Shown piece by piece: positions 27,499 through 54,153 of a stretch of DNA of 64,000 nt. A program made the position numbers and the translations under genes. The stretch is from Candidatus Omnitrophota bacterium (GTDB lineage Bacteria; Omnitrophota; Gorgyraeia; Gygaellales; JAQTUX01): NCBI GenBank assembly GCA_028707125.1, contig JAQTUX010000001.1:269639-333638 (forward strand). The letters are read 5' to 3'. Every line of letters begins with the position of its first letter. Within the stretch, counting starts at the first letter, position 1. The notes under the pieces are model-generated. The model did not search any database. It had not been told where the DNA came from and saw only the letters and a list, made by a program, of their open reading frames with translations.

Positions 27499-28494
27499 TT
27501 GATTATGCGCGCCGCTTACGATAGACCGCGTTTTTGCGACCTCGTCGTCACGGAGAACTGCATGTTGAGATGCCGGATGTGCAGGATGTGGCAGAGCAGG
27601 GCCGGAGGCGATGAGCTGCCCGTCGACGCATGGAAAGGGTTTATCGATTCCTTCGCGGATTTCGCGGGCGGCAATGCCCAGGTGCAGTTTGTCGGGGGAG
27701 AGCCGCTGCTTAAAAACGGGATAACAGGCCTTATCAGCCATGCCCGCAGCAGGGGGCTGGCAACCACCATGACCACCAATGCCTATCTTTTAGACGGGAA
27801 GGCATCCGGTGATATCGCGCTTTCAGGGTTGGGCACGCTGGTCCTGTCGCTGGACAGCCTGAAGGCGCAGGTCCACGATTTTCTGCGGGGACAGGCAGGC
27901 GTCTACGCGAGGGTAATGGCGGCACTGGATTTCTTCAGCAGGCACAAGGATGATCGCCCCCGCCTGCATATAGTCACCACCATAATGCAGCCGGATTTAG
28001 ACGGTGTCCTGGAGCTTGCCGAATGGGCAGAGGCCAACAGGGCGATAGACGCCATAAGTTTTCAGGCGGTGATGCAGCCATTTTTCATGCCGCCGGATGA
28101 TGCCTGGCATGAGAGAGAAGAGTTTGCCTTATTATGGCCGAAGGATGCGGAAAAAATTGACGAGGTCATGGACGGGCTTATACGCCGTAAACGTTCCGGT
28201 TTTAAGATAACCAACCCCGCGGCGCAGTTTGAGGTTTTCCGGTCTTATTTCAAAGACCCCCGGAGATTTGTGAAGGCCTCAAGATGCAATCTGGGGTATG
28301 ACTCGCTGACGGTGAATACGGCAGGCGGCATATTCCTGTGTAATTCAATGGAGCCCATAGGGAATATACGCGACGGGGCGGATATCGCGGAGTTATGGCA
28401 TTCAGAGAAGGCCGAACTCGTAAGGAAGCAGATCGGCGACTGCCGCCGCAACTGCAAGCTTATGATCAACTGTTTTTTTGACGATGAAGGATAA
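27499..28494 (+). CDS. Small MoaA/twitch-like radical SAM paralog 10
   Basis: PRFCDLVVTENCMLRCRMCRMW; VGGEPLL; LSLDSLKAQVHDFLRGQAG; CRRNCKLMINC. Confidence 0.8.
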   Translation: MIMRAAYDRPRFCDLVVTENCMLRCRMCRMWQSRAGGDELPVDAWKGFIDSFADFAGGNAQVQFVGGEPLLKNGITGLISHARSRGLATTMTTNAYLLDGKASGDIALSGLGTLVLSLDSLKAQVHDFLRGQAGVYARVMAALDFFSRHKDDRPRLHIVTTIMQPDLDGVLELAEWAEANRAIDAISFQAVMQPFFMPPDDAWHEREEFALLWPKDAEKIDEVMDGLIRRKRSGFKITNPAAQFEVFRSYFKDPRRFVKASRCNLGYDSLTVNTAGGIFLCNSMEPIGNIRDGADIAELWHSEKAELVRKQIGDCRRNCKLMINCFFDDEG

Positions 28495-30640
28495 TACCGA
28501 CGAATTCCAGCTGCACAAATTGATCCAGGCCCATCTTCAGGCCGGGGAATACGGCCCGGCCAGGGAGGCCTGCCGCCGGCTCTTGAAGATCAGGCCCTCA
28601 AGCATAGCCGCGCACCAGGAACTGGGCAACATACATCTTGAGGAAGGCGATCCTGCCGGGTCAATAAAATATTTCCGGAAGTCCCTGCGGCTGTGCGCGC
28701 GGCAGGGCGGCGGGGACGGGCCGTTAAATGTTTATATAAGGGAATCATATATCAATATGGGCCGGGCATATCTATCGATGAAAAAGTACGGCCGGGCGGT
28801 CAAGATGTTGAAGAAGGCGCTTGAATTAGCGCCGCGGGAGGAGAGGATATACAGATTCCTCGCCTCGGCATACCTTGAGGCGAAAGATTATGATGCGGCG
28901 GTAGATACCGCAGCCGGCCGTTTCAAATCCGCGGGAAAGATCAAGGCCTGCCAGGCGCAGGCCCGGATAAAGATGCTGCGCATCCCCAATTTTTACGGGC
29001 CCGATATCTTTTCCACGGAGATGAATTCCATTATGCTGCCGCCTCTGGCGCTGGGGAATATTGTCTCTTATGTCAGATCACGGGGGATCCCTATGGACCA
29101 GGACGATCTGCATATAAAAATACATCACGATAATTATTTCGGCGGCGGAGAGGAAAAGATAGACGAAGAGGTCTTCTTTGACGCCTCCAGGGTGGCCGGA
29201 TACGCCGGGGGAAACAGCGATCCGCTGATAGAAGGGATCATGGAAAGGGTATGCCGCAAAACCGGCATTGAAGGATACAGGATAATCCTTTTTTCTTTAG
29301 ACAGCTGTTCCATGAACGACAGCCATGCCTTGTTCGCCGTCTGCCTGGCAAGGTATCTAAAGAAGGTCTATGGCCCGATAATAATTTTAGGCGGGCTGAA
29401 TTATTTCCTGGACTTAACGCGCAAGATCGGCTGCCCGCGTTCGGACATAGATCATATAATAGGCAATGAAGGGGAGGAGGTTGTGGCAGAGTTGCTGGCT
29501 TCCTTATTGGATAACAAGGCATATTCAGGCACGGGCAGACAGGAGGGCGAGGGGGCCATTTATTCCCTGAAGGTCCCCGCTCCGGTAATGCCGGATTTTG
29601 AGGGGCTGCCCATTGACAAGTACCGCTATCGCGGCCTAAGGAGCGATTATTGCCCGGACGATGCGTTGAGCCGGGAAATAAAAGAATTCAACGATTCCCG
29701 GACATTGCTTCTGCCTTTCAGGTTCATAAAGGGCTGCACCAATAAATGTATATTTTGCGCCAGCTCCGCCGGCGGGCTGATCCATGTGGCGCCGCCCGCG
29801 GTCGCGGCCGAATGGCTCAAGCAGCTTCAGGAAAGATACGACCCGACAGGGTACCTTTTTCTTAACGATACTTTAAATATCTCCAAGAAATACGTTGACC
29901 GGTTTTGCGAAGAGGTGATAAAAAGAAAGATCGGGGCCCGCTGGTCTGATTGCGCGCGGGTGGACCGGCTGGATAAAGAATCCATATACAAAATGGCTGA
30001 AGCAGGATGCGTGCGGCTGGTATTCGGGATGGAGACCGCCAGCAGGCGGCTGCTGAAATATATCAATAAAGAAATAGACCTGGCCCAGCTGGAAAAGGCG
30101 CTTTACTGGGCTGACAAGGCCGGCATCTGGACAGGGGTGGAGATAATCAGCGGCCTGCCTTATGAGAAGGAAAGAGATGTCGAAGAGACGATCTCTTTCC
30201 TAAAACGCAACAGAGAGCATATTGACGCCTTTTACTATAACGCCTTTAATATAAAGGACACCTCCGCCATACGAGCGCACCCTGAAAAATACGGCATAAC
30301 CAATATATTTGAGCTATCCAGTTACGAAGAAGGGTTTTCCACATTTGTCAAATACGGCTTTGATGAAACGGGCGGACTGAAGTGGCCGGAGAAGAGGAGG
30401 CAGGTGGTCTCCAGTTTTAATAAGGTCATAGATGCCTTGGGGAGGCCTCCTTTTCCGGAACACGAATATGAAAGTTTTCTATTTTTCCTCTATTCCAAGT
30501 ACGCCGACAAGAGGGCCATAAGGGACATCTTTTATTCTGTAGGCAGGCACAAGAACGCATGCCTTGAGCTTTTCAGGAAGGCGAAGAGGAACGATCGGCA
30601 GCCCGGGCAAGCAGCCGAGAGGACACTGGTTTATGGTTGA
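28478..30640 (+). CDS. TPR-repeat / B12-binding-domain / radical SAM fusion protein (paralog A)
   Basis: N-terminal ~150 aa TPR-like (AHQELGNIHLEEGDPAGSIKYFRKSL..., YGRAVKMLKKALELAP). Middle Rossmann-like B12-binding region. Radical SAM FIKGCTNKCIFCASS. Start could be 28484 (Met two codons in). Confidence 0.75.
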   Translation: MTMKDNTDEFQLHKLIQAHLQAGEYGPAREACRRLLKIRPSSIAAHQELGNIHLEEGDPAGSIKYFRKSLRLCARQGGGDGPLNVYIRESYINMGRAYLSMKKYGRAVKMLKKALELAPREERIYRFLASAYLEAKDYDAAVDTAAGRFKSAGKIKACQAQARIKMLRIPNFYGPDIFSTEMNSIMLPPLALGNIVSYVRSRGIPMDQDDLHIKIHHDNYFGGGEEKIDEEVFFDASRVAGYAGGNSDPLIEGIMERVCRKTGIEGYRIILFSLDSCSMNDSHALFAVCLARYLKKVYGPIIILGGLNYFLDLTRKIGCPRSDIDHIIGNEGEEVVAELLASLLDNKAYSGTGRQEGEGAIYSLKVPAPVMPDFEGLPIDKYRYRGLRSDYCPDDALSREIKEFNDSRTLLLPFRFIKGCTNKCIFCASSAGGLIHVAPPAVAAEWLKQLQERYDPTGYLFLNDTLNISKKYVDRFCEEVIKRKIGARWSDCARVDRLDKESIYKMAEAGCVRLVFGMETASRRLLKYINKEIDLAQLEKALYWADKAGIWTGVEIISGLPYEKERDVEETISFLKRNREHIDAFYYNAFNIKDTSAIRAHPEKYGITNIFELSSYEEGFSTFVKYGFDETGGLKWPEKRRQVVSSFNKVIDALGRPPFPEHEYESFLFFLYSKYADKRAIRDIFYSVGRHKNACLELFRKAKRNDRQPGQAAERTLVYG

Positions 30641-32054
30641 CGGCAATAACGAGACAGGGATCCTTCTGGTGCAGTCCCCGCCCTGGGGCGTTTATGCCCC
30701 GCCGCTGGGGATCGCCTACCTTTCCGCTTTTCTTAGGTCCGGCAGGCCGGGCGCGATGATATACGACTTGAATATGGAGATATTCCGCGGCTGTCCCGAA
30801 CGGATCAGGGCAAAATGGGATACGGGAGATTTTGAGTTCTGGGCATCCGGAAAGGCGGCGCAGGAGTTACGGGGGTCATTGGACGGGCTGGCGGAGGGGA
30901 TAATTTCTTACGGCGCCTCCGTGATCGGGTTTTCCGCAACTTTTGCCTCCGCGCCGTTTCTGAACGCGTTTATCCCCATGCTCAGGAAAAAGTCGGACAG
31001 GAAGTTGACGATCATAGTCGGCGGCGGCGGCGCCAGCTATGCCCAGACACGGTCGTTATTTACCGACGGCACGATCGATTATTTTGTGATCGGAGAAGGA
31101 GAGCGCGTTTTATCCGATTTGTTGGCTGAGATACGCGGGGGCGGCTTTAACAGCGCTCCGGCGGGTTGCATAAGCTGGAAGGATGTATCCGGCAGCCACG
31201 CCGTCTGTATAGCGGCGGACAAAAACAATACCGATATCAACACAATACCGTTTCCTACCTTTGAGGAATTTGACTTGAGTTATTACACTCAGGACGACCT
31301 TATCCCGCTCATAACCAGCCGCGGCTGCATACGTAATTGTATCTTCTGCTGCGATTCACCGCTGAAGAGGCCTTATCGCTGCCGCCGGCCGCGGGCGGTA
31401 GCGGATGAGATGGCTTATCATGTGAAGCGATACAAAAGAAAAAGATTTGAATTCAGCGACCTGTTGATAAACGGAGACCTGGGCTTCCTGGATGAGCTCT
31501 GCGACTGCCTGATCGCCATGGATATGGGAGTCGCCTGGGGCGGCCAGGCGACCATCAGAAGAGATATGGGCCGCGGCTTGTTGGGTAAAATGAAGGCAGC
31601 CGGCTGCGGAGGGTTGACATTCGGTGTTGAAAGTTGCTCCGACAGGGTGCTGGAGCTGATAGGCAAGGGCGTCAGCGCCGCGGACATCCGCAGGGGCCTG
31701 GCGCGGGCAAAGGATTCCGGCATGCAGGTAGAGATAAACCTTATCGTCGGCTTTCCCGGGGAGGCAGAGGAAGATATTGATGAGACGATAGATTTCATAA
31801 GGAAGAACGCGCCGTCCATTGATAAGATAAACAGCCTGAATATCTGCACCATAGGCCCCGGCACGCATATTTATGAGCATCTTCAGGACTATAATATAGA
31901 TAAGGATATGATAACGGACTGGTATGCCTGGTTCACCAGGGATATGTCCAATACGCTTGAGGTGAGGATGGCAAGGCACCGCCGGATATTATCGCTTTGT
32001 TCGGAATTGAACCTCGCGCCCGCCTGGCAGAATGTGAAAAAGAGCGATGTTTAA
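30633..32054 (+). CDS. B12-binding (class B) radical SAM protein
   Basis: ILLVQSPPWGVYAPPLGIAYL (B12-binding domain N-terminus); radical SAM TSRGCIRNCIFCCDS; GVESCSDRVLELIGKG. Start set at the Met at 30633, just before the upstream stop (ORF track begins at 30564). Confidence 0.8.
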   Translation: MVDGNNETGILLVQSPPWGVYAPPLGIAYLSAFLRSGRPGAMIYDLNMEIFRGCPERIRAKWDTGDFEFWASGKAAQELRGSLDGLAEGIISYGASVIGFSATFASAPFLNAFIPMLRKKSDRKLTIIVGGGGASYAQTRSLFTDGTIDYFVIGEGERVLSDLLAEIRGGGFNSAPAGCISWKDVSGSHAVCIAADKNNTDINTIPFPTFEEFDLSYYTQDDLIPLITSRGCIRNCIFCCDSPLKRPYRCRRPRAVADEMAYHVKRYKRKRFEFSDLLINGDLGFLDELCDCLIAMDMGVAWGGQATIRRDMGRGLLGKMKAAGCGGLTFGVESCSDRVLELIGKGVSAADIRRGLARAKDSGMQVEINLIVGFPGEAEEDIDETIDFIRKNAPSIDKINSLNICTIGPGTHIYEHLQDYNIDKDMITDWYAWFTRDMSNTLEVRMARHRRILSLCSELNLAPAWQNVKKSDV

Positions 32055-33357
32055 AAAGGCGCTTTCTTTTATATTTATCACGCTCTCTACCATCTTTTTA
32101 TTAGAGGCAGGCCTTAGATCCGGCGGATACCTTGTTCTGAAGTTTAACCCGCCCTCGCAAAGCGGCCGCCTGAAACAAGGGGGAGAAACAGTCATTCTTT
32201 GTTTGGGGGATTCTTTTACCTTCGGAGTAGGCGCCGCCTATCAGGATAGCTATCCGCGGCAGCTGGAAGGCATGCTTAAGGAGAGGTTCCCCCGGAAGTC
32301 CATCAAGGTTTATAATCTGGGTATCCCCGGGAGTAATTCCTCGCAGCTTGAGAGCGGGCTTCAACGGGATATCGATAAATACCATCCGGACCTGGTAATA
32401 GTCATGTCCGGACGCAATGATATCTGGAATATGGCCGGAGCCGGCAGGCCGGTTTTTTTACTGAGCGGATCGCGTTTATATAAATTGATAAAGGCCGCGC
32501 AGGCAAATATAGCGGCCAAGATGAGAAAGATTGAGGAAAATGAACGCGCCTTAGCGCCGAGAAAGGCGCCGCCGGAGGCAAGCCGGTTGATTACGCAGGG
32601 CCATGACTTGAAGGAGCAAGGAAGGTATGATCTGGCGAAGGAGTGTTTTCTTGAGGCGCTGCGTATCGACCCGGGCAATCCCGACGCCAACCGGCAACTG
32701 GGCACTATTTATAGAGAGGGGGCGGAATACGAGCTGGCTGAGAAGTGTTTGACTGAAGCGGTGAGGCAGGGTTATGGCGGGGATGGGAATATCTATGTGG
32801 AATTGGGTATGGTCCACAGGATACAGAACAGGCCCGGGTTGGTCCGGGAGGAGTTAAGGCGGGCATTGGTGGACCCGCGCGCGGCAGCGCTTGCCTTTAT
32901 TGAATTTCAGCAGACCTGTGCCGACAGCAGCGAGTTTTATAAAGAGATGGAGGCCTTCAGCGCGGGGCTTAAGGACAGGGGGAGTCGCAGGATGATCAAG
33001 GCCATGATAGCATTGCACAGGGACAAAGAGGCGATAGCGGCAATAATGCGCGATAACTTCCTGAAGATATATAAGGCCTGCAGGGATAACGGTGTCGGGC
33101 TGATATTGCAGACATATCCGGAAACGGAGAACGTAGCGGAAGGTGTAAGGCATATAGCCGATAGATACGATATCCCCACGGTGGACAACCATCTGGTATT
33201 TGAGAAAGAATTGAATGGCCGCGATAGAAGGGAGTTTTTTGTAAGCGATGACCATTGCAATGCCGAGGGGTACCGGCTTATCGCGGAGGGCGTATACGAG
33301 GCCATGATCAGGGAAGGGATGATTGATGATACCGTCGCCATCGCCGCAAAAAATTAA
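32047..33357 (+). CDS. Membrane-anchored SGNH/GDSL-family hydrolase with TPR-like insert (paralog 2)
   Basis: N-terminal TM; ILCLGDSFTFGVGAAYQDSYP; LVIVMSGRNDIWN; FVSDDHCNAEGY; central TPR-like region (ECFLEALRIDPGNPDANRQLGTIYREGAEYELAEKCLTEAV). Confidence 0.7.
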   Translation: MFKKALSFIFITLSTIFLLEAGLRSGGYLVLKFNPPSQSGRLKQGGETVILCLGDSFTFGVGAAYQDSYPRQLEGMLKERFPRKSIKVYNLGIPGSNSSQLESGLQRDIDKYHPDLVIVMSGRNDIWNMAGAGRPVFLLSGSRLYKLIKAAQANIAAKMRKIEENERALAPRKAPPEASRLITQGHDLKEQGRYDLAKECFLEALRIDPGNPDANRQLGTIYREGAEYELAEKCLTEAVRQGYGGDGNIYVELGMVHRIQNRPGLVREELRRALVDPRAAALAFIEFQQTCADSSEFYKEMEAFSAGLKDRGSRRMIKAMIALHRDKEAIAAIMRDNFLKIYKACRDNGVGLILQTYPETENVAEGVRHIADRYDIPTVDNHLVFEKELNGRDRREFFVSDDHCNAEGYRLIAEGVYEAMIREGMIDDTVAIAAKN

Positions 33358-34357
33358 CGAGCCAAAGAGTTGCGTCATACTGCTCACTCTTGGATGCGTT
33401 CTAAGATGCAGGATGTGCCATCTCTGGAAGAACGACGAGGCAGGGATAAAAAAGCCCGGCCTGCAGGACTGGAAGGATTTTATTTCTTCCATAAACAGGC
33501 CGCGGGATCCCGAATTTACGGTCATATTCGGCGGAGGAGAGCCGATGCTGTTTCCCGATACCCTGATAGAGTTGATCCGCTTCTGCCGCGCAAGAGGATT
33601 CAGGACCTCTCTGGCGACAAGCGGATATTTCATAGATGAAGCAATGGCTAAACGCCTGGCAGATTCAGGGTTAAACTATATAGCCCTTACTTTATACAGT
33701 TTAAATGAAAAGACCCATAATTTTTTGCGCGGTATGCCCGACAGCTATGACAAGCTCATACGGGCGATCGGCTATCTTGCCGGACAGCGCGCCTCTCTCG
33801 AAACAGCCATAGACACCGTGATCATGGCGCCTAATCTGGGAGAGGTCTTAGAATTGGCGGATTGGGTAAAGGGCGACGGAAGGATATCTTCCGTTTTCTT
33901 CCAGTCGGTTGTGCAGCCGTTCCATACGCCGGCGCTGGAAGAGTGGTATAAGTCAGGGGAATACGGATTCTTATGGCCAAAGGACGCCGCTCAGGTGGAT
34001 TCCGTCATTGACGGATTGATAGAAAGGAAGGAGCGCCTGGGGGAGGGAAGGGGCAGGATCAATAATCCCGTTTCGCAGCTTAAACTTTTCAAGGCCTATT
34101 TCAGGGACCCGCGCAAGTTTATAAAACGTTACTCCTGCAACGTTATTAATGACAGCGCCTTTACCGTGTCTCCCGACGGAGGAGTGAATCTTTGCCCGTA
34201 TATGAAGCCCATCGGCAATATACGCGGCGGCTCCCTGCGCGATATCTGGCATTCGCAGGAGGCGCTGGCCAGGCGGGATGATATAGCGCGGTGTAAAAAG
34301 AACTGCCACCACATAATCAATTGCTGGTATGAGGAAGAAAAGGCGGTATGTGCTTAG
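33323..34357 (+). CDS. Small MoaA/twitch-like radical SAM paralog 11
   Basis: PKSCVILLTLGCVLRCRMCHLW; GGGEPML; ATSGYFIDEAMAKRLADSGL; CKKNCHHIINC. Confidence 0.8.
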   Translation: MMIPSPSPQKINEPKSCVILLTLGCVLRCRMCHLWKNDEAGIKKPGLQDWKDFISSINRPRDPEFTVIFGGGEPMLFPDTLIELIRFCRARGFRTSLATSGYFIDEAMAKRLADSGLNYIALTLYSLNEKTHNFLRGMPDSYDKLIRAIGYLAGQRASLETAIDTVIMAPNLGEVLELADWVKGDGRISSVFFQSVVQPFHTPALEEWYKSGEYGFLWPKDAAQVDSVIDGLIERKERLGEGRGRINNPVSQLKLFKAYFRDPRKFIKRYSCNVINDSAFTVSPDGGVNLCPYMKPIGNIRGGSLRDIWHSQEALARRDDIARCKKNCHHIINCWYEEEKAVCA

Positions 34358-36402
34358 ATAGTGAAAACGGCCATATAATATCCGGCAACCGGTATCTGGA
34401 CAGAAAGAAATACAGCCGGGCGCTGGAAGAATTCAATAAGGCGCTGGATGCTGACCCGCGCAACGAATACGCCTATCAGGGGCTGGGGCATCTATATCTG
34501 CAGCAGGGAAAATATGAGCAGGCATTAGAGGCATTCCGGAAGGGGCTGCGGATCAACAGCCGGAATCAGTATATACATCAGGGTTTAGGGTATATATACC
34601 TGGAACAGGGCTCATATGATGCTGCAGAGCGGGAGTTTGAGGTGACCCTGCGGCTGGGCGGAGATAATATGTTCGCCCGTAGGATGCTGGGATATATCTA
34701 TAAGAGAAAGGGAAAGGACGAGGCGGCGGCGTCGGAATTCATAAAGGCGACGGAATTATATCTGGGAAGAGAGGAAAATAATAAAAGGCCGGCTTCGGGA
34801 GACGGCCGCCGGGATTGGAAGGTCAAGCTGTTAAGGATGCCCGGCTTTCCCGACGAAAATGATATCGGCGGCAGGCAGCTGAATTACTGCCTGCTACCGC
34901 CTCTGGCGCTGGGCTGCCTTACCGGTTTTCTGAGGCAGAACGGGTTTGATATCGATCAGGATGACCTGAACATAAAGATCCATTACGATAATAAATATTG
35001 CGATGACGCCGGAGATAAGGTAGATATCTCCGTTTTTTACGATGAGGGCAGGATACTGAGGTGGCTGCGGGAAGGAGGAGACGGGTATTTAGATTCGGTT
35101 ATGGAGGCAGTCGGGCGCAAGACAGGGTTGAGCGGATACCCGGTCGTCTTATTGTCGCTGCCCGCGTTTTTCAATAATTCCGGCTGTCTTATGTTCACCC
35201 TGGCGCTGGCAAGATTCCTCAAGAATAGACACAATCCCGTCCTGGTTTTAGGGGGAGCCAATCAATCGGTTGAATTGTTGAGCAAGTATGACAGGCGTGA
35301 CATAGATTTTGTGATCTACGGTGACGGAGAGGTGGCGCTGCTTGAACTACTTGGGGCCATAAGACAGGATGCCGACCCCGGGGAGTGCCTGTATTCCTGC
35401 GTTAAAGAAGAGGGCAGGTTTATGGCAACAGAGGTCCATCCTCCGCTTAAGCCGGATTTTTCCGGACTGCCCATGGACAAATACAGGCATGAGGGGACGC
35501 TGCTTCTTTTGTTTAAGTTTATCAAGGGATGCGCCCATGAATGCGTTTTCTGCCCTGAATCCACAAACAGACTGGTTTATGTTTTGAAGCCGGAGAAGGC
35601 AGCCGGTTATTTAAAAGAGCTTCAGGAAAAATACAACCCCACAGGATTTTTCTTCTTAAGCGATACCATAAATATCTCCAGGGGTTTCCTTAATGAGTTT
35701 TGTGATGAGATAATCGGCAGCGGAACGGACATACTCTGGACCGACAGCGCGCGCGCGGACAACCTGGACAGGGATACGCTTTTTAAGATGCGCCGCGCCG
35801 GATGCATACGCCTGGTCTTCGGCATGGAGACGGCCAGCCCGGGATTGTTGAGGTATGTGGACAAGCGCATCAGTTTAAGGCGGCTGGAAGATGTATTGAG
35901 ATGGGCTGATGAGGCCGGGATATGGACGGGGGTGGAGATAATCTGCGGCCTGCCGCACGAGAAAGAAAGAGATGTTGACGAGACGGTATCCTTTTTGAAC
36001 AGGAACAAGGAGTTTATAAACAGCGCGTATTTTAATCAATTCGGCCTCAGGGACGGCAGCGTGCTTATGCGCAGCCCGGAAAGGTTCGGGATTGAAAATA
36101 TAAAAGAGATATGCCAATACGCGGACGGGGAATTTACCTATTTTCATAAATACGGATACGACGAGACAGGCGGCCTTCAATGGCAGGAAAAGAAGAGGCA
36201 GATCATTGCCGCGCATAAAAAGCTCATTAATAATACCTGCTGGCAGAGCGCCTTTCCCATCTATGAGTTTGAGCATGTTTTGTTTTCGCTTTATTCCAGG
36301 TTCGCTGATAAAAAGGCGGTTTCCGGCATATTCAATGAGATGCTGAAAGAGAGGAATTATCAGAGGCAACAATCTACAGACCATGCCAAAGCGCGGTATT
36401 AA
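34348..36402 (+). CDS. TPR-repeat / B12-binding-domain / radical SAM fusion protein (paralog B)
   Basis: N-terminal TPRs (YAYQGLGHLYLQQGKYEQALEAFRKGLRINSRNQYIHQGLGYIYLEQGSYDAAEREF). FIKGCAHECVFCPEST. Shares long collinear similarity with 28478-30640 (e.g. GIWTGVEIICGLPHEKERDVDETVSFLNRNKE). Confidence 0.75.
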   Translation: MCLDSENGHIISGNRYLDRKKYSRALEEFNKALDADPRNEYAYQGLGHLYLQQGKYEQALEAFRKGLRINSRNQYIHQGLGYIYLEQGSYDAAEREFEVTLRLGGDNMFARRMLGYIYKRKGKDEAAASEFIKATELYLGREENNKRPASGDGRRDWKVKLLRMPGFPDENDIGGRQLNYCLLPPLALGCLTGFLRQNGFDIDQDDLNIKIHYDNKYCDDAGDKVDISVFYDEGRILRWLREGGDGYLDSVMEAVGRKTGLSGYPVVLLSLPAFFNNSGCLMFTLALARFLKNRHNPVLVLGGANQSVELLSKYDRRDIDFVIYGDGEVALLELLGAIRQDADPGECLYSCVKEEGRFMATEVHPPLKPDFSGLPMDKYRHEGTLLLLFKFIKGCAHECVFCPESTNRLVYVLKPEKAAGYLKELQEKYNPTGFFFLSDTINISRGFLNEFCDEIIGSGTDILWTDSARADNLDRDTLFKMRRAGCIRLVFGMETASPGLLRYVDKRISLRRLEDVLRWADEAGIWTGVEIICGLPHEKERDVDETVSFLNRNKEFINSAYFNQFGLRDGSVLMRSPERFGIENIKEICQYADGEFTYFHKYGYDETGGLQWQEKKRQIIAAHKKLINNTCWQSAFPIYEFEHVLFSLYSRFADKKAVSGIFNEMLKERNYQRQQSTDHAKARY

Positions 36403-37993
36403 AGTCATAAGATTGCCCGGTTTTTTCAAGAAGCGGCAATTCTCTTCAGGGCCGAATTGCTGCCTGATACCTCCTTTGGGACTGGGGCTTATCAGCGCGC
36501 ACCTTCGCTCCAAAGATATGCCGGTAGAGCAGGCGGATCTCAATATTGAGATCCATCACAATAATTACTATTCCGATTCAGCCGCGGACAAGATTGATAC
36601 CGAGGTATTTTTTGACCTGCCGCGCGTAGAGAGATACGCGCTTGGCGGCAGCGATCAATATATAGATTCTATTATGGACAGGGCAGCCGGTAAGGCCGGG
36701 GTGGGCCAGGGGCAGTTTATGCTTCTTTCTCTGCCGGACAATATCGAGAATGAAACAAACCTTTCTTTCGCGCTGGCCTTTACGCGTTTTATCAAAGACC
36801 GATACGGCACCATAAACATATTGGGCGGGCAGGGGCCGTGGCTGGGCCATATGCGTTCCCGGTATGGCTGCCGAAATATAGATCATATCCTGCGCGGCGA
36901 CGGCGAATACCTTCTTGACCGGATTTTTGACGCGCCGGAAGCGGGCCCCGCGTTCTCCGGCGGGCCGTATCTGTCGGTTGAAGACGGCGGCAAGGTGATA
37001 ACTTCAAATAAGATATGCAGGCCGATCAAACCCGATTTCTCCGGCCTGCCCATGGACAAATACAGGTCCAGGCAGGAGGTGCTGGAGCATCCGCGGGAGC
37101 TTGGGGGTTTAATGGATGAATTCCAGAAAAATGGGGCGTTGCTTTTGCCGTACAGGTTTATCAGGGGATGCCCCTTTGAGTGCATCTTTTGTGTTTCCTC
37201 AACCCAGAGTTTAAGCCACGCGCTTTCTCCGGCGGAGATCGCCGGGCACCTGGAGTCCATGCAGGAACAATACCGGCCGGACGGGTTCTTCTTTTTGAAC
37301 GATACCATAAATATATCCAGGAAGTTCATAAATGAATTGTGCGATGAGATATTAAACCGCGGGCTTAAGGTCTTGTGGAGCGACTGCGCCAGGGCGGACA
37401 ACCTGGACAGGGACACGCTTTTTAAGATGCGCCGCGCCGGATGCATACGCCTGATCTTCGGGATGGAGACGGCCAGCCCCCGTTTGCTGAAGTACATAAA
37501 TAAACGGGTGGACCTGGCGCAGCTGGAGAACGTCCTGCGCTGGTCTGATGAGGCCGGCATCTGGACCGGGGTTGAGGTGATCTGCGGTTTCCCCCACGAG
37601 CGGGAGGAAGACATACGGGCCACGATCTCGTTCCTGAATAAAAATGAGGAATATATCAACCGCGTGTACCTGAATCATTTTGACCTGAGGCAGGGCAGCA
37701 TGCTTTACGATTCTCCCCGGAAATACGGCCTGAAGCGGGTCATTGAAGTCAATCAATGCACGCAGAGGGATTTCAGCAGTTATGTTCAGTTTGGCTTTGA
37801 CGAAGACGGGGGGCTGGCCTGGGAAGAAAAAGAGAGGCAGATGGAGCGTTCCCTGGGAATGGTCCGGGACAGCTGCGCGCGGGGCTCGAGGTTTTTTACA
37901 GACGAGCATCTTTTATTTTTTCTTTATTCCAGGTTCAGCGATAAGGAGAGGATAAGATCCATTTATCTCAAGATCCTCAAACAGGAGGGGTGA
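36383..37993 (+). CDS. B12-binding radical SAM protein (paralog of the C-terminal two-thirds of 34348/28478, no TPR)
   Basis: FIRGCPFECIFCVSSTQS; RAGCIRLIFGMETASPRLLKYINKRVDLAQLENVLRWSDEAGIWTGVEVICGFPHEREED is almost identical in pattern to the upstream gene. Confidence 0.8.
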   Translation: MPKRGIKVIRLPGFFKKRQFSSGPNCCLIPPLGLGLISAHLRSKDMPVEQADLNIEIHHNNYYSDSAADKIDTEVFFDLPRVERYALGGSDQYIDSIMDRAAGKAGVGQGQFMLLSLPDNIENETNLSFALAFTRFIKDRYGTINILGGQGPWLGHMRSRYGCRNIDHILRGDGEYLLDRIFDAPEAGPAFSGGPYLSVEDGGKVITSNKICRPIKPDFSGLPMDKYRSRQEVLEHPRELGGLMDEFQKNGALLLPYRFIRGCPFECIFCVSSTQSLSHALSPAEIAGHLESMQEQYRPDGFFFLNDTINISRKFINELCDEILNRGLKVLWSDCARADNLDRDTLFKMRRAGCIRLIFGMETASPRLLKYINKRVDLAQLENVLRWSDEAGIWTGVEVICGFPHEREEDIRATISFLNKNEEYINRVYLNHFDLRQGSMLYDSPRKYGLKRVIEVNQCTQRDFSSYVQFGFDEDGGLAWEEKERQMERSLGMVRDSCARGSRFFTDEHLLFFLYSRFSDKERIRSIYLKILKQEG

Positions 37994-42825: not shown

Positions 42826-42983
42826 CAGGGACAGCGGCCGCTATAGAATAAAATATACGTAGCAGAAAGGAAGGATGCGTTTTATACTGACGGTATTATT
42901 AACGATCGCGGCTTTGGGCATGGATTGTTTCCTGTGGCTGCTTAAGAGGATCAAAAAAATATGCGTTTTCCCCGGGGGGTAAG

Positions 42984-44177
42984 ATGAACATCCTGATGGT
43001 CCATCCTCATGATCTGTTCTCGGCGTCCGAACCTTGGACCATACGCATTGTTTCCATCGCCAGGGAATTTGTTAAAAGCGGCCACGGGGTAAAGCTGGTA
43101 TATTTTCCGCTGGAATGGGAAGGCCGTAGGCCGCGTAAACTTGGCCCCCATATTGACTGCTATCCCTTTTGCCGCAGGTCCGGCCCGCATATTTTAGCCG
43201 CCAATACCCTGCGCCTGTCAAAGTTAGCGGCCTGGGCGGATATCGTGCATTTTCAGAAGTGCTTCCATCAAGCGTCTATCCCCAGCATTATCGCGGCCCT
43301 GTTGAATAACAAGCCGCTTCATTATGATTGGGATGATTGGGAGGCCAAGATCTATGAGATCTCCACGCGGCCGGGTTTCTTAAGCTGCCTCATCCGGAAT
43401 TTCCTGGGTGCCCTTGAGGCATTTATCCCGCGGATAGTTGATACGGTGTCCGTTGCCAGCCGTAGATTAGAAATAGAGTGCAGGCGCCTGGGGGTAGGGC
43501 CGGACAGGATATTTGAGGCCCATGTCGGCGCAGATATTGACAGGTTCCGCCCCGATATTTCGGGTTCGGCGGTAAGGCGGCGCTATAATATAGGCAAGCC
43601 GCTTGTTTTGTATCTCGGCCAGCTTCACGGCGGCCAGTATGCCGAACTGTTCATCAGGTCCGCGGCAAAGATAACCCGCGGTTCCGGCCAGGACGCCGTG
43701 TTCATGATAGCGGGCGACGGATACCGGCGGCGGGAATTGGAAGAGCTCAGCCGCGGCCTGCGGCTTAACGGAAGCATGATCTTTACCGGGCCGGTCCCCC
43801 ATAGCGATGTCCCCGAATACATCGCCGCCTCCGACATATGCGTCGCCTGCTTTGAGAAGAACGACGTTACCTTGTGCAAGAGCCCTCTTAAGATAGCCGA
43901 ATATATGGCTTCGGGAAAGGCGATAGTCACCAGCGATGTGGGAGAGGCGCCGCGCATGGTAGGGCAGGCGGGGTTGATCACGGCCCCGGGAGACCCTGAT
44001 TCGTTAGCCGAGGGGATATTAAAGCTTCTGAGGCGGGAGGGTCTAAGGAAAGAGATGGCTTCGCGCAGCCGCCTGAGGGCGGAAGAGAAGTATAATTGGG
44101 CTGTAACGGCAGCGAATCTGATGCGGGCATACGGGAAGGCGGCGCGGATAAAAGGCCGCAAGGGAGGAAGGTCCTGA
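42984..44177 (+). CDS. Glycosyltransferase family 4 (GT-B, GT1-like)
   Basis: C-terminal EYMASGKAIVTSDVGEAPRMV (E-X7-E region); two-Rossmann layout; HVGADIDRFRP. Confidence 0.7.
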   Translation: MNILMVHPHDLFSASEPWTIRIVSIAREFVKSGHGVKLVYFPLEWEGRRPRKLGPHIDCYPFCRRSGPHILAANTLRLSKLAAWADIVHFQKCFHQASIPSIIAALLNNKPLHYDWDDWEAKIYEISTRPGFLSCLIRNFLGALEAFIPRIVDTVSVASRRLEIECRRLGVGPDRIFEAHVGADIDRFRPDISGSAVRRRYNIGKPLVLYLGQLHGGQYAELFIRSAAKITRGSGQDAVFMIAGDGYRRRELEELSRGLRLNGSMIFTGPVPHSDVPEYIAASDICVACFEKNDVTLCKSPLKIAEYMASGKAIVTSDVGEAPRMVGQAGLITAPGDPDSLAEGILKLLRREGLRKEMASRSRLRAEEKYNWAVTAANLMRAYGKAARIKGRKGGRS

Positions 44178-44179
44178 CA

Positions 44180-46561
44180 ATGAATACTACCGTTAAAACG
44201 CGGAGGCCGGCGGAAAGGATCATTTTCGCGGCCATCCTGCTTCTTATAATAACCGTGCCTTTGATCTTCAGCGGCAAAACCAGCCAGATATACGGGCTTA
44301 TCAAGATCGCCGCCATGGAATTCCTGCTTATCCTGCTTACGGGCCTTTGGGTCTTTAAGATGAACCGCAGGGGGGATTTTAAGATCATTTTTACTCCGGC
44401 AGGTATACCTTTGTTGATCTTCTCCCTTATTTGCGCGTTATCACTTTTGCGCGCCATAAATCTGCGGGAAGGGATAGTGCATCTGGCGCAGGTTTTATCT
44501 TACGTCGCCCTTTTCTTCATAGTAGTAAATAATATTGAATCTAAAAAAGAGGTCTCGCTGATAGTTAACGCCGCGATCTTGACGGCATTTTTGAGTTGTA
44601 TCTACAGCATGTACCGCGACCAGGGCCCTTATCTGTTTACCGCCATACGCCAGACATATATATCTACCTTCGGCCATCCGGTATTCTTCGCTCAGTTCCT
44701 GGGGCTTGTCGCGCCTGTGTGCCTGGCGGTTTTTCTGCAGAGCAAAAGCCTCCGGTCCAAACTATGCAGCGGCATCGCCCTGGCCACGCTCTTCTTCTTT
44801 TTATTATTGACCAAGGCAAGGGGGGCGTGGCTTGGCCTCATATGCGCCTCGCTTGTTGTCATTTTCATCCCGGCGGTTATGCATAAAGAGCGCAGATATA
44901 GATTCTTCCGCTTCATCCCCTGGAAAAGCATAGGCATATTCCTTCTTTGCCTTTTACTGCTTTTTTCCGGCCTGTCCGTATTCGCCCATTTCCGCGTCTG
45001 GCATAAGGAGATGGTAGAGCGTTTTTATTCGGCATTCAGCCTTTCCCATGTAACCAACGTAATGCGCGTTGAGGTATGGAAGAATACCTGGCAGATGATC
45101 ATGGGCAGCCGTTTATCAGGGGTGGGCGCGGGGAATTTTCCCGTTATTTATCCTGCTTACCGCAGCGTGGCCGAGATCTCGATCACGCCGGAAGGCAGGA
45201 CGTATTTAAGCGCCCATAACGATTACCTGCAGGTCCTGGCTGAGACGGGGATATTCGGCCTGGCCTGTTTTATGTTCATTATTTATTCTTTATTCAGAAT
45301 GGGCATATCTGTCCTGAAGAAGACCGGGGACAGGGACCTGTATTATATAACTCTGGGTATCCTGGGCGCGATCAGCGTGATCCTCGTGTACGCGCTTTTT
45401 AACCCTTCTTTTCAGATCCCTTCCACGGGAATGATATTCTGGCTTTGGGCGGGGTTGCTCGGCGTATTATACAAGAAGGAGTGCCTGTCCGCGCGCGAAG
45501 AGGCAGCTCCGAAGCCGAAGGGCCCTCTGGCCCAAAGCGCGATACTGGCGGTTACCTCAGCCGCGGCCATATATCTGGCCGCGCTGCTGATCAGGCATTT
45601 TGCCGCCGACTTATATTTTACCAAGGCAAGAGCATATAGAGAATCGGGGAGAGGGCTGGAGGCGATAAGTATCCTGGAAAGGTCCGCCCTGCTTTATCCC
45701 GGTAATTACGAAGCATATTTTTTGCTGGGGAACTATTACCAGGAACTGGAAAGGTTTAATGAGGCGTTCGCCCAGTATGAGGCCGCCCTGGAATTGCATC
45801 CGTACCAACCGATCGTTTTTAATAATCTGGGGACGGTATATTTTAAGACAGGGCAGTATCAGAAATCTGCCGTGGCCTTTAACAGGGCGGTAGACCTTAA
45901 TCCCCGCTACTTCGGGGCGTATTACAATCTTTATCTGGCCTATAACGCGATGGGGCAGCAGGAGAAGGCCCAGGAGTGCATACGCCTGATCTATGAGTTA
46001 AAGCCCGATTTCCTGGGCGGGATGTATATGGATCAGGAACAGTATGATGCCGCGATCGTGGCCTATGCCGCGGCTATTGAGAAGGATCCCGGAAATTACG
46101 GAGCGCATTTTAATCTGGGCCTGACCTATAAGATGAAGGGCCTGGATGATGAAGCGGCCGATGAATTCAGGAAGGCGATCGCGCTTAAGCCGGACCACGT
46201 GGGGGCTTACCGCAATCTGGGATTTCTGTTGTTTAAGAGTTTCAAAAGATATGATGAGGCAATAGAGATCCATAAGAAGCTGCTGGCCTTGGTGCCGGTG
46301 GATATAGAAGGCCACCTGAACCTCGGCCTGCTGTATACGGAGTCGGGAGATCACGCGCTCGCGGAACAGGAATTCAGGAAAATAATCGGGCTTAATCCTT
46401 ATTACGGCAAGGCCCATACCGCGCTGGCGGCGCTGTACCGCAGGCGGAATGATTTAGACGCTGCGGTCAGGGCGCTCAAGGAGGCGCTGGCGATAAGCCC
46501 GGAATCCTCCGAAATAAAAGTGATGCTGAACGATATTTATAAAGAAAAATTAATGCGGTAG
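44180..46561 (+). CDS. Wzy_C / O-antigen ligase family membrane protein (ligase or O-oligosaccharyltransferase-like) with C-terminal TPR domain
   Basis: About 11 TM helices; Wzy_C hallmark AHNDYLQVLAETGIFGLACFMFIIY. C-terminal ~350 aa has at least 8 TPRs (YFLLGNYYQELERFNEAFAQYEAALELHPY..., AYRNLGFLLF...). Start set at the Met at 44180, three nt after the upstream stop (ORF track begins at 44096). Confidence 0.8.
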   Translation: MNTTVKTRRPAERIIFAAILLLIITVPLIFSGKTSQIYGLIKIAAMEFLLILLTGLWVFKMNRRGDFKIIFTPAGIPLLIFSLICALSLLRAINLREGIVHLAQVLSYVALFFIVVNNIESKKEVSLIVNAAILTAFLSCIYSMYRDQGPYLFTAIRQTYISTFGHPVFFAQFLGLVAPVCLAVFLQSKSLRSKLCSGIALATLFFFLLLTKARGAWLGLICASLVVIFIPAVMHKERRYRFFRFIPWKSIGIFLLCLLLLFSGLSVFAHFRVWHKEMVERFYSAFSLSHVTNVMRVEVWKNTWQMIMGSRLSGVGAGNFPVIYPAYRSVAEISITPEGRTYLSAHNDYLQVLAETGIFGLACFMFIIYSLFRMGISVLKKTGDRDLYYITLGILGAISVILVYALFNPSFQIPSTGMIFWLWAGLLGVLYKKECLSAREEAAPKPKGPLAQSAILAVTSAAAIYLAALLIRHFAADLYFTKARAYRESGRGLEAISILERSALLYPGNYEAYFLLGNYYQELERFNEAFAQYEAALELHPYQPIVFNNLGTVYFKTGQYQKSAVAFNRAVDLNPRYFGAYYNLYLAYNAMGQQEKAQECIRLIYELKPDFLGGMYMDQEQYDAAIVAYAAAIEKDPGNYGAHFNLGLTYKMKGLDDEAADEFRKAIALKPDHVGAYRNLGFLLFKSFKRYDEAIEIHKKLLALVPVDIEGHLNLGLLYTESGDHALAEQEFRKIIGLNPYYGKAHTALAALYRRRNDLDAAVRALKEALAISPESSEIKVMLNDIYKEKLMR

Positions 46562-46567
46562 GTCGAT

Positions 46568-47398
46568 ATGTGCGTGAGCGTATATATCCCCGCGTACAAC
46601 GCGCAGGGCAGCATAGAAAAGAGCGTCAGGTCCATATTGAGCCAGTCCTGCCCCATAGATGAGATAATGGTCATAGACGACGGCTCCACCGACCGGACAG
46701 CGCAGATCGCCGCCGGCCTCGGCGTAAAGGTGATCCGCCATAGCCGGAACAGGGGGATCGCGGCGTCCCGTAATACCGCCCTCAAGGCCGTAAAGAGCGA
46801 GTTTGCCGCCTCCATAGACGCGGATTGCGTCGCCGAGAGCCGTTGGCTGGAGAAATGCCTGCGCCATTTTAACGACCCCGGCATCGCCGGCGTGGGAGGG
46901 GCAATGGCAGAGAGCGGGCGTTCTCTGCCGGACAGGTGGCGGGCGGTAAACCTGCGGCAAAACAATTGGAAAGGCGCTGACAGCGCGGTCCCTTTTCTTG
47001 CCGGCTGCAATACCGTGTACAGAAGAAGGGCGCTGTTGGATGCGGGGTTGTTCGACGAGAGGTTCAGGTCGCATCATGAGGACAGCGATATGGGCCGGCG
47101 CCTGCGCGAGAAAGGGGCTGTTTTACGTTATCTGCCGCATGCCATGGTCACGCATATAAAGGAAGATACGCTTTATTCGGTGATGAGGTCATGCTGGGGG
47201 TTCAGGCATAAGGCGGCGCCGCAGACATTGGCGGCGTTTACCGGAGATATCCTTGCCGATTGCAGGCATTACGTTTCAATTGTGCTCAGGGATGTCCGGA
47301 ACAGGGAATTGCGCCTTTTGCCGATAGACCTTGCATATTTATTTTTTCAGGCGTATTTTTCAATGAAATATTTCGCGCGGCAAGGCCGCATTAAATAA
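46568..47398 (+). CDS. Glycosyltransferase family 2
   Basis: VSVYIPAYNAQGSIEKSVRSILSQSCPIDEIMVIDDGSTDRT; DADCV motif. Confidence 0.8.
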   Translation: MCVSVYIPAYNAQGSIEKSVRSILSQSCPIDEIMVIDDGSTDRTAQIAAGLGVKVIRHSRNRGIAASRNTALKAVKSEFAASIDADCVAESRWLEKCLRHFNDPGIAGVGGAMAESGRSLPDRWRAVNLRQNNWKGADSAVPFLAGCNTVYRRRALLDAGLFDERFRSHHEDSDMGRRLREKGAVLRYLPHAMVTHIKEDTLYSVMRSCWGFRHKAAPQTLAAFTGDILADCRHYVSIVLRDVRNRELRLLPIDLAYLFFQAYFSMKYFARQGRIK

Positions 47399-48378
47399 TG
47401 ACAGCCAAACCGTTAGTGTCTTTATTGATCGTCAATTACAACGGGCGGCAGCTTCTTCCCGCTTTATTTTCTTCCATTGAGCGCCTTGATTATCCCCGGG
47501 AAAGGCTGGAGGTTATTTTTGTGGACGATAATTCAAGCGACGCATCGGTCGCCTTTCTGCGCGATAAATACCCCGGCATAAAAATAATCGAGAACAGGAA
47601 GAAGCTGGGCCCGGCCGGAGCAAGGAACGCGGGCATGCTTCGGGCGCGGGGAGAGTTTGTGGCCACGCTGGATAACGATGTGGTCCTTGACCCTGGCTGG
47701 CTGAAGCCGCTGGTGGAATTCATGCAAGGCGACGCGAACACGGGGGCCTGCGCTTCAAAACTGCTTTTTTATGACGATAAAGAGGTCATCAACGGAGCCG
47801 GAGGCATCGTGAACATATACGGCGACGGGATGGACAGAGGCATATTCCAGAAGGATTCAGGCCAGTATGATAAGCCCGAGCGGGTATTCTTTGCCTGTTC
47901 CGCGGCAATGCTGCTGCGCAGGAGCGTTATTGAGCGGATCGGCCTCTTTGACGGGGATTATTTTTATCTATATGAAGACCTGGATTATTGCTGGAGGATA
48001 AACCTGGCGGGATCCAAGGTCGTCTATGTCCCTTCCGCGGCCGCATACCACGGGTTTTCCCGGACGATGAAAAGGGATACCCTGCGGGTAAAATACCTCC
48101 TTGAGAAAAACCGGCTTACGACGCTCCTGAAAAATTACAGCTTATGGACGCTGGCGCGCCTTTCCGCGGGGCTGTTAAGGCACAGGTTTAGAAAGGCGTC
48201 TCTGCCCAGGGAGGGAGGGCATCCGGCCCTGGTCCTGTTCGCCGTCGGTTTAACCGCCTGGCTGTGGAATATCGCCAACGCGGGGCGGATCATTAAAAAG
48301 CGCTTATGGGTACAACGGCATGTGAGGAAGATAGGCGATCGCGAGATCGCCCGTCTAATGTGCGATGGAGCGATTTAA
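47398..48378 (+). CDS. Glycosyltransferase family 2
   Basis: VSLLIVNYNGRQLLPALFSSIERLDYPRERLEVIFVDDNSSDAS; LDNDVV; YLYEDLDYCWR. Confidence 0.8.
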   Translation: MTAKPLVSLLIVNYNGRQLLPALFSSIERLDYPRERLEVIFVDDNSSDASVAFLRDKYPGIKIIENRKKLGPAGARNAGMLRARGEFVATLDNDVVLDPGWLKPLVEFMQGDANTGACASKLLFYDDKEVINGAGGIVNIYGDGMDRGIFQKDSGQYDKPERVFFACSAAMLLRRSVIERIGLFDGDYFYLYEDLDYCWRINLAGSKVVYVPSAAAYHGFSRTMKRDTLRVKYLLEKNRLTTLLKNYSLWTLARLSAGLLRHRFRKASLPREGGHPALVLFAVGLTAWLWNIANAGRIIKKRLWVQRHVRKIGDREIARLMCDGAI

Positions 48379-49492: not shown

Positions 49493-49494
49493 CG

Positions 49495-50121
49495 ATGCGA
49501 AGGCCATATCTATTGATCAAAAGATCCGCCGATATAATCGCCGCCTCAGTGCTCCTGTTGCTGTTTTCCCCGTTATTTATAATACTGGGCCTGTTGATCG
49601 GCATGGATTCCGGCGCCCCTGTTTTTTTCAGGCAGACGAGGATAGGCAGGAACGGACGGAGGTTTAACATCTATAAATTCAGGACAATGCGCGAAGGCGC
49701 GGACAGATCGCAGGATCAATATGCCGATCTTAATGAATGGCCGCGGCCTTTATTCAAGGTCCGCAATGACCCGCGCCTTACCCGCATAGGCGCGCTCTTG
49801 CGCGACACGAATTTAGACGAGCTGCCGCAGCTGCTCAATGTTTTAAAGGGCGATATGAGCCTTATCGGGCCCCGCCCCTTTCAGGCAAACGAGGTGGATC
49901 TTTCCGACCGGCGGCAGCGCGGGCGCCTGGAGATCCTGCCCGGCATGGTCTCGCTGTGGCACGTGTCGGGCCAATACAGGCAGGGTATGAGTTTTGACGA
50001 GTGGATGGAGAGCGACCTGCGCTACGCAAGGGATATTTCTTTGTTTCTGGACGCGCAGATCCTGTTGAGGACTATCAGGATGTTAGGCCGGCACATTATT
50101 TTGAAGTTTTCCCTACGCTGA
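49495..50121 (+). CDS. Undecaprenyl-phosphate sugar phosphotransferase (bacterial sugar transferase, WbaP C-terminal-domain type; initiating enzyme)
   Basis: [57 protein letters not shown]; [21 protein letters not shown]. Confidence 0.8.
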
Positions 50122-53067: not shown

Positions 53068-53085
53068 GGGCCCGACAGGACTAAC

Positions 53086-54105: not shown

Positions 54106-54153
54106 AAGTCCTTATGCTTCAGTTATCCGTAACCGGCAGCGTTGTTTGATTAA

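Follow-up and report, generated by a model that had tools for sequence, protein, structure and literature searches.

Class-B-architecture radical SAM enzymes, in part fused to tetratricopeptide repeats, in a large gene array of an Omnitrophota bacterium

Class-B radical S-adenosylmethionine (rSAM) enzymes carry out some of the hardest C–H functionalisations known, and few of them have an assigned substrate. A stretch of 64,000 nucleotides from a Candidatus Omnitrophota bacterium (GenBank assembly GCA_028707125.1, contig JAQTUX010000001.1, positions 269,639 to 333,638 of the forward strand; hereafter the window) contains four genes of this architecture, here called A to D. N-terminal tetratricopeptide repeats (TPR) are encoded by A and C, each of which has a TPR-less gene directly downstream, B and D respectively. 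The locus raises the question of what this alternation means: an initial annotation read it as a pair architecture present twice, and suggested a heteromeric complex or a division of labour between scaffold and catalyst. Our comparisons indicate instead that one uncharacterised family (the ACD family) contributes the paralogues A, C and D, that B comes from a different class-B subfamily, and that the succession of A and B, members of two different subfamilies, is genuinely conserved. The reading that we prefer, with a probability of about 0.5, is that each of the four tailors a glycan as a separate enzyme within a multi-rSAM assembly organised by TPR, before that glycan is exported by an ATP-binding cassette (ABC) transporter.

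Two subfamilies and the order of their genes

All four open reading frames (ORFs) lie on the plus strand at the coordinates first assigned to them, with one refinement: the frame of A opens with TTG at 28478, and its likely start is the ATG at 28484. Gene A (28484..30640) encodes an N-terminal TPR region of ~160 aa (repeats at about aa 13–144, 28514..28909, matched above cut-off by Pfam TPR_1, TPR_2, TPR_8, TPR_12 and others), a B12-type Rossmann-like domain, an rSAM core with the motif CTNKCIFC and a C-terminal domain; the ACD profile scores 651 bits over aa 161–691. Gene B (30633..32054) encodes a 473-aa class-B rSAM protein with PF02310, PF04055 and the motif CIRNCIFC, and its ATG at 30633 precedes the end of A, so that the two genes share 8 nt (ATGGTTGA). 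Gene C (34348..36402) combines an N-terminal TPR region of ~155 aa (repeats at about aa 13–134, 34384..34749, Pfam TPR families above cut-off) with a class-B rSAM core (CAHECVFC) of clade C of the ACD family, and gene D (36383..37993) encodes a TPR-less class-B rSAM protein of the same family (CPFECIFC). PF04055 is found in all four (57–63 bits, cut-off 29.5), as is CX3CX2C, the cysteines of which are invariant in all clades. Pfam detects no TPR in B and D, and the initial assignment of repeats to A and C stands. A–D have no transmembrane segment, A and C also have no signal peptide, and A and C, being rSAM enzymes, must be cytoplasmic.

Pairwise alignment of the four proteins does not bear out a duplicated pair. 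Had a unit A+B given rise to C+D, A should be nearest to C and B nearest to D; instead, D shares 46% identity with C and 44% with A, as against 28% with B. A and C share 39% over ~690 residues including the TPR region, and B lies at 26–28% from A, C and D. The strings that had been quoted as common to C and D, RRAGCIRLVFGMETASP / RRAGCIRLIFGMETASP and EAGIWTGVEIICG / EAGIWTGVEVICG, are indeed present in both. The B-type and ACD families form separate profiles, each scoring 115–190 bits on the other. In a neighbour-joining tree of 63 ACD cores, clade A, always TPR-bearing, and clade C, in which the TPR region varies greatly in length and is once C-terminal, each receive 100% bootstrap support, and the TPR-less clade D receives 51%; the branching order of the three clades is weakly supported (C+D 56%, A+C 21%), and because the A/C/D relation lacks bootstrap support we make no claim that D arose from C by loss of the TPR. 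Sequence comparison points to A, C and D as old paralogues kept adjacent, and not as a recent copy of a two-gene unit.

Gene order was compared in 48 related loci (labels L001 and so on), the ORFs of which were annotated with hidden Markov models (HMMs) built in this analysis. A recurrent module emerged, the first part of which reads (small TPR ORF), TPR-bearing ACD gene of clade A, B-type gene, GDSL(+TPR) gene, SPASM gene of ~345 aa and ACD gene of clade D; after clade D follow (TPR-bearing ACD gene of clade C), SPASM+TPR, SPASM, a ~565-aa SPASM protein and a family 1 glycosyltransferase (GT1), and in the relatives the array ends adjoining a GT1 gene. Clade A is directly followed by a B-type gene on all ten contigs that contain clade A (the window, L001, L003, L004, L006, L007, L010, L014, L015 and L017), usually with an overlap of 8–17 nt, and clade A precedes the B-type gene in 10 of 11 cases, L011 being the exception. 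Around D, a SPASM gene lies directly upstream, overlapping by 4 nt, in eight of ten cases; a clade C gene is inserted before D only in the window and L003, and stands downstream of D in L001, L004 and L014. Clade C adjoins D in about 6 of the 9 informative contigs (the window, L003, L001, L004, L014 and probably L006); this adjacency is thus frequent, and its order is not fixed. The observation that TPR-bearing copies stand beside TPR-less ones extends in this way beyond the window. Gene overlap was also considered as evidence of pair coupling and was rejected: almost every junction between 10415 and 42825, the rSAM array in which the four genes lie, overlaps, so that overlap carries no pair-specific information. 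In L014 (9983–11567) two overlapping ORFs (231 + 315 aa) take the place of a single D-clade gene, either as the result of a frameshift or sequencing error or because it is a pseudogene.

Protein D has a 100% identical match at NCBI, from a Candidatus Omnitrophica metagenome-assembled genome. Omnitrophota, Elusimicrobia and Endomicrobiales account for almost all relatives, and farther ones occur in other phyla and in some archaeal metagenome-assembled genomes. B-type homologues number at least 120; those listed are mostly from Omnitrophota, and nearly all full-length ones combine PF02310 with PF04055. Five contigs with rSAM arrays of this type (L008, L010, L020, L025 and L027) are labelled Planctomycetia, Patescibacteria or Pacearchaeota, and L008 and L010 have the same gene order; mis-binning or mislabelling is the likely cause of these odd labels, with horizontal transfer as the alternative. 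Distant solitary homologues in Myxococcota (L030) have DUF3050, major facilitator superfamily, ELP3-like and methyltransferase genes as neighbours, an uninformative context.

The cobalamin-type domain, catalytic residues and TPR

The initial annotation had assigned a B12 domain to all four proteins. PF02310 is over threshold only in B (39.9 bits, cut-off 32.1) and in a truncated gene at 62887 (46.7 bits), and Pfam gives no match to it in A, C or D at E≤0.01. Nevertheless, the N-terminal domain of B aligns with the matching region of A, C and D (by BLASTP and by the B-type HMM), PF02310 is matched by 15 of 34 members of the D family (best 2.4e-10), and the D-family profile aligns to TsrM, OxsB and TokK over the N-terminal region. 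The AlphaFold2 model of D (pLDDT 89.9, pTM 0.90) has an N-domain of five parallel strands (6–10, 48–52, 112–117, 144–149 and 168–171) and a β-hairpin (197–208), the topology given for class-1 cobalamin-dependent rSAM enzymes (PMC13331322); a helical insert of ~60 residues lies between strands 2 and 3, and it is to this insert that we attribute the failure of Pfam to find the domain in D. In Foldseek searches, the full-length model matches MgmA, AprD4, TsrM, OxsB and TokK at E 1e-13 to 1e-17, with MgmA on top. Residues S116, G148–G149 and D167 of the N-domain are invariant, and N123, in the loop after strand 3, is near-invariant, across all clades, a pattern that appears compatible with cobalamin binding and is not proof of it.

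Taken with the direct match in B, these results indicate that a divergent B12-type domain is present in A, C and D, by predicted fold for D and by homology only for A and C, and that A, B, C and D are class-B-architecture rSAM enzymes. The initial annotation had further counted six cobalamin-dependent rSAMs. Six genes of class-B type are indeed present in the window (13516/13594, 28478, 30633, 34348, 36383 and 62887); because architecture does not prove cobalamin use, we describe them as six class-B-architecture rSAMs. Cobalamin use by A–D is inferred and is, in our view, the most likely case.

Catalytic conservation was assessed at C263 and at the 49 positions that do not vary within the D family. 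These ~50 positions, the three cluster cysteines included, are retained with virtually no exceptions across clades A, C and D as well as the Elusimicrobia clade. A degenerate scaffold or pseudoenzyme working beside a catalytic partner was rejected on this ground: TPR-bearing and TPR-less clades alike retain all invariant positions, and neither member of a pair therefore looks like a pseudoenzyme. The proposed division of labour between scaffold and catalyst thus finds no footing in these residues, and A–D are all predicted, from their retained catalytic residues, to be catalytically competent.

The TPR region itself is facultative. Among the 120 closest homologues it is absent in 69, N-terminal in 44 and C-terminal in 2; one B-type relative bears it (P0190), and in the Elusimicrobia loci L005, L018 and L019 every ACD copy does. 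In related loci SPASM rSAMs, GDSL hydrolases and a Wzy_C protein carry TPR as well, and stand-alone TPR ORFs of ~180 aa lie just upstream of clade A. As TPR is facultative and occurs on four enzyme classes, a system-wide docking module fits better than a feature of one pair member, which is how the repeats had first been interpreted. The literature searched yielded no description of TPR-fused class-B rSAMs or of such rSAM loci; a paper on Elusimicrobia reports rSAM clusters beside nitrogenase paralogues, a different context. On two adjacent Elusimicrobia stretches (L018 and L019, JAFGSA010000046.1), ~21 rSAM genes, nearly all with an N-terminal TPR, run over ~42 kb and include four TPR-bearing ACD genes. 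On Elusimicrobia GCA_020523885.1 (L005, 7151–12604), two tandem ACD genes (902 and 867 aa) have long N-terminal extensions, in which TPR are clear in the first and faint in the second.

A profile search over 1.84 billion representatives recovered fused proteins (labelled P0246 and so on): single polypeptides of 1.0–2.3 thousand residues with two to five complete rSAM modules, each with its own CX3CX2C. Twelve labels (P0246, P0248, P0260, P0277, P0283, P0295, P0298, P0329, P0357, P0365, P0367 and P0374) denote proteins with class-B modules, some with SPASM modules in addition: P0246 (2331 aa) has one SPASM and four B-type-like class-B modules, P0248 has four class-B modules, and P0277 has one SPASM and three class-B modules; the cluster of P0277 holds an NCBI Candidatus Omnitrophota protein and occurs on several independent contigs. 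Two ACD-like modules are joined in P0360, P0366 and P0304, B with SPASM in P0168 and ACD with SPASM in P0352. Among the multi-module proteins, none combines clade A with B, or clade C with D. Such “Rosetta-stone” fusions support physical cooperation of neighbouring array rSAMs in general.

Glycan context and rival explanations

The array is flanked by genes for glycan export and assembly. Just upstream, an ABC-2 permease and a TagH/Wzt-type ATPase of 903 aa (6933..10421, plus strand) form a glycan-polymer exporter, assigned through PF01061, PF00005 and a TagH match of 172 bits, which is under the equivalog cut-off. Downstream, a glycan assembly block (42984..50121, plus strand) comprises GT1, an O-antigen-ligase-like Wzy_C protein with TPR, two family 2 glycosyltransferases (GT2), a second GT1 and a Bac_transf initiating transferase (PF02397, PF04932, GT1 ×2, GT2 ×2). 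With an exporter, an initiating transferase, glycosyltransferases and Wzy_C, the window has the components of an ABC-transporter-dependent glycan locus of the O-antigen or teichoic-acid type. ABC-transporter-dependent pathways complete the polymer in the cytoplasm, the sole compartment in which rSAM enzymes can act; this, together with the glycan context, leads us to favour glycan tailoring. The AlphaFold2 model (pLDDT 88) of the SPASM gene at 33323 has BlsE (7vob), a sugar-nucleoside decarboxylase, as its best fold match in the PDB, and DesII also scores high. In a preprint on Omnitrophota giant proteins, PF04055 co-occurs with GT1 in a ‘sugar metabolism’ Pfam module.

Under the reading that we prefer, each enzyme, in which an N-terminal cobalamin-type Rossmann domain is followed by a [4Fe-4S]/SAM core and a C-terminal domain, would perform 5′-deoxyadenosyl radical chemistry, most likely methyl transfer from methylcobalamin, at an unactivated carbon of its own. 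As substrate we envisage a glycan on a lipid carrier, or the sugars of that glycan, which would be assembled in the cytoplasm and modified before Wzm/Wzt-type export. The TPR would serve as docking modules that hold A, C, the SPASM rSAMs, the GDSL hydrolases and Wzy_C on a common partner or multi-enzyme assembly, and would not mark a non-catalytic scaffold subunit; B is the constant downstream partner of A. A more far-reaching version, which we put forward tentatively and hold to be doubtful, is that a TPR-organised assembly of up to ~26 rSAMs exists in Omnitrophota and some Elusimicrobia, in which class-B and SPASM modules in fixed order hypermodify a surface glycan or glycoprotein; in some genomes several of the modules are fused in one polypeptide of 1.5–2.3 thousand residues. 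Such an assembly might introduce many C-methyl or other radical modifications as a carbohydrate counterpart of proteusin-type hypermodification, with the couple of TPR-bearing ACD and B-type enzymes as one station; this elaboration is equally tentative.

Characterised enzymes offer partial parallels. TsrM (6wte), TokK (7kdx), OxsB (5ul4) and MgmA (9ccb) share with the ACD family a cobalamin-type Rossmann domain with terminal β-hairpin, a CX3CX2C barrel and a C-terminal domain; identity is only 13–16%, however, and the ACD family alone has the 60-aa helical insert. An N-terminal TPR such as that of A and C was not found described for any characterised class-B enzyme in the literature searched. 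AprD4 (6fd2), the radical SAM 1,2-diol dehydratase of apramycin biosynthesis, is the nearest PDB entry in sequence to B and to D; its domains follow in the same order, and it takes a sugar, paromamine, as substrate. Identity is about 15%, TPR are lacking, and AprD4 operates together with a partner reductase and not as part of an rSAM array. Class-B precedent for carbohydrate moieties is provided by GenK and GenD1 of aminoglycoside pathways and by HpnJ, which acts on the hopanoid side-chain; their substrates are small molecules of antibiotic or lipid pathways, and they do not belong to ABC-transporter glycan loci. In the proteusin (polytheonamide) system with PoyB and PoyC, and with the TIGR03975 C-methyltransferases of ribosomally synthesised peptides with post-translational modifications (RiPPs), several class-B and other rSAMs likewise act on one substrate, but B scores 101 bits on TIGR03975 against a cut-off of 281.85, and proteusin systems use few iterative rSAMs, whereas the window has 26 rSAM genes and yielded no precursor or leader-recognition element. 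TPR modules dock glycan-modifying enzymes in exopolysaccharide machineries such as those of PelB, PgaA, BcsC and AlgK, where the TPR are periplasmic or in the outer membrane; in the window TPR also occur on SGNH/GDSL and Wzy_C proteins, and A and C are predicted to be cytoplasmic instead.

Several observations weigh against the glycan-tailoring reading or its chemistry. A–D reach no named NCBIfam family: the best matches (ApyD, PhpK, BchE and rSAM_ocin_1) score ~100 bits against cut-offs of 280–750, with top scores of 105–114 bits for ApyD (cut-off 750), two of these are peptide-modifying families, and every named class-B family compared (ApyD, PhpK, BchE, HpnJ, TIGR03975, TIGR04072 and MgmA/TIGR04014) stays under its curated cut-off. 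BlsE leads the peptide enzymes anSME, SkfB and SuiB only marginally as a fold match of the SPASM model, and the window showed no sugar-nucleotide genes. AprD4 shares the architecture but is not known to use cobalamin, and PF02310 goes undetected in A, C and D. The tandem pair of L005 sits among housekeeping genes (HisG, tRNA synthetases and toxin–antitoxin genes), with no SPASM, glycosyltransferase or exporter gene within ~7 kb. The cobalamin pathway in Omnitrophota, finally, is described as ‘present but not universal’ (PMC10066038).

Two of the rivals concern how the enzymes work rather than on what. Obligate heteromers of A with B, and of C with D, in which the TPR subunit recruits substrate or partner, would fit the strict A-then-B synteny (10/10 contigs forwards, 10/11 backwards), the C/D adjacency, the tandem TPR-bearing ACD pair that stands alone in L005, and polypeptides that fuse two to five rSAM modules (P0360, P0366, P0304; P0168; P0352). 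Yet the fusions include no A–B or C–D joint, the usual overlapping neighbour of D is a SPASM rSAM rather than a TPR-bearing ACD gene, and C/D order is variable; L011, L012, L020, L022 and L024, all of which contain the ACD family, have B- or D-type genes with no TPR-bearing ACD gene within 10 kb; all Elusimicrobia copies bear TPR, both pair members retain all catalytic invariants, and overlapping junctions are universal in the array. We therefore consider obligate pairing unlikely. The second concerns chemistry only and could hold alongside any substrate model: the Rossmann domain of A, C and D may be a relic, as in AprD4, and the enzymes may carry out dehydration, epimerisation or rearrangement instead of methylation. 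The position of AprD4 as best PDB sequence match for D and B, the silence of PF02310 in A, C and D and the interruption of the domain by the 60-aa helical insert all fit this; the conserved S116, G148–G149, D167 and N123, the five-strand-plus-hairpin topology of cobalamin-binding class-1 enzymes and the PF02310 matches of 15 of the 34 relatives do not, and we judge cobalamin-independent chemistry to be improbable.

The other rivals replace the glycan. In a RiPP- or proteusin-like system, the substrate would be a ribosomal peptide or a large surface protein (for example the product of 129–6179), C-methylated by the class-B enzymes, cross-linked or epimerised by the SPASM enzymes and bound by the TPR. 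TPRs typically bind peptides; the best NCBIfam matches include the RiPP families ApyD and rSAM_ocin_1, the top fold match of D, MgmA, is a protein methylase, the SPASM model fits anSME, SkfB and SuiB nearly as well as BlsE, and the Wzy_C+TPR and PMT_2 proteins could be protein glycosylation enzymes. The NCBIfam scores, however, all lie far under the family cut-offs, GT1 and the ABC-2 exporter are conserved companions of the array, and a search of 46 window ORFs with Pfam and NCBIfam found no precursor-like ORF, PqqD or RiPP recognition element (RRE) domain, or leader peptidase; since the genes of the array overlap, there is no room for a precursor gene inside it, and a precursor may be encoded outside the scanned window ORFs. 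The only small ORF (6257–6655), between the putative fibre gene at 129–6179 and the ABC transporter genes, encodes a 132-aa TIGR02436 four-helix-bundle protein. A peptide or protein substrate is accordingly a minority reading, which we consider unlikely. Lipid tailoring of a hopanoid-, ladderane- or tetraether-like kind, with class-B enzymes that methylate or rearrange alkyl or polyprenyl chains, is suggested by weak NCBIfam matches to HpnJ (13516, 272 bits), to TIGR04072 ‘lipid biosynthesis B12-binding/radical SAM’ (B, 91 bits) and to Tes (SPASM genes), all under their cut-offs; because the window has no fatty-acid, isoprenoid, squalene–hopene cyclase or glycerolipid genes, a lipid role is very improbable.

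Defined here are the uncharacterised ACD family, with its facultative TPR fusions, and the B-type subfamily as its fixed partner; both are conserved among uncultured Omnitrophota, where a locus may hold up to 26 rSAM genes beside those for glycan export and assembly. The interest of the locus lies less in two pairs than in A followed by B as a conserved station, in the array of many rSAMs with its TPR organisation and in the polypeptides that fuse several modules; these polypeptides and the strict A-then-B synteny also offer concrete constructs for expression and complex prediction. A surface glycan as substrate would mean that ultra-small, possibly host-dependent bacteria carry a polysaccharide with an unusually heavy load of radical modifications; a protein as substrate would make the system a new kind of hypermodification.

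The rSAM array and its surroundings

The window is one long plus-strand gene train. Its 26 rSAM genes, identified as ORFs with CX3CX2C/PF04055 and all on one strand, fall into three stretches (10415–42825, 52144–55731 and 60711–64000), the first of which is a contiguous array of 21 rSAM and three GDSL(+TPR) genes that includes A, B, C and D and is probably a single transcription unit. The array is headed by an HpnJ-like class-B rSAM gene (13594..15798; ORF 13516), the fifth of B12 type, whose NCBIfam HpnJ match of 272 bits lies under the cut-off of 577.6 and whose PF02310 match (22 bits) is sub-threshold; the sixth (62887..64000, with PF04055 besides the PF02310 match given above) is truncated at the window end. 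SPASM-type paralogues of ~330 aa, 14 in near-unbroken tandem with a mutual identity of 32–38%, reach no NCBIfam family at cut-off; the SPASM gene between the GDSL-TPR gene and C (33323..34357) encodes a small member of 344 aa. Four GDSL/SGNH+TPR proteins (19163–20449, 32047–33357, 41614–42825 and 59398–60798, all on the plus strand) each have a single N-terminal hydrophobic anchor, are scattered among the genes of the cytoplasmic rSAMs and are conserved in related loci; the one between B and the SPASM gene (32047..33357), with its N-terminal membrane anchor, is a conserved member of the recurrent module.

In a promoter and terminator scan, sites within the array were at chance level. The largest intergenic gap of the scanned 27–44 kb stretch, 42825–42984, separates the rSAM array from the glycosyltransferase block and contains the best sigma-70-like match (11/12, at 42822–42849), which suggests two transcription units. 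An Rfam scan of the window returned no family and no cobalamin riboswitch.

At the upstream end, 129–6179 encodes a 2016-aa protein with a C-terminal Peptidase_S74 domain (an endosialidase-type intramolecular chaperone) just upstream of the exporter; by its domain content it is a fibre- or tailspike-like surface protein, and a candidate target of glycosylation or modification. The family matches of the exporter ATPase (7710–10421) are confined to its first ~230 residues, and the remaining C-terminal extension of ~650 aa could be a polymer-recognition domain. The glycan block is followed by DUF362, further rSAMs, a methyltransferase, a PMT_2 glycosyltransferase and a U32-family protein (UbiU/TrhP-like, 100 bits, under the cut-off). 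Next to this last gene, and with it at 57457–59382, comes a 288-aa ORF without a family match; the two could form an oxygen-independent hydroxylase pair.

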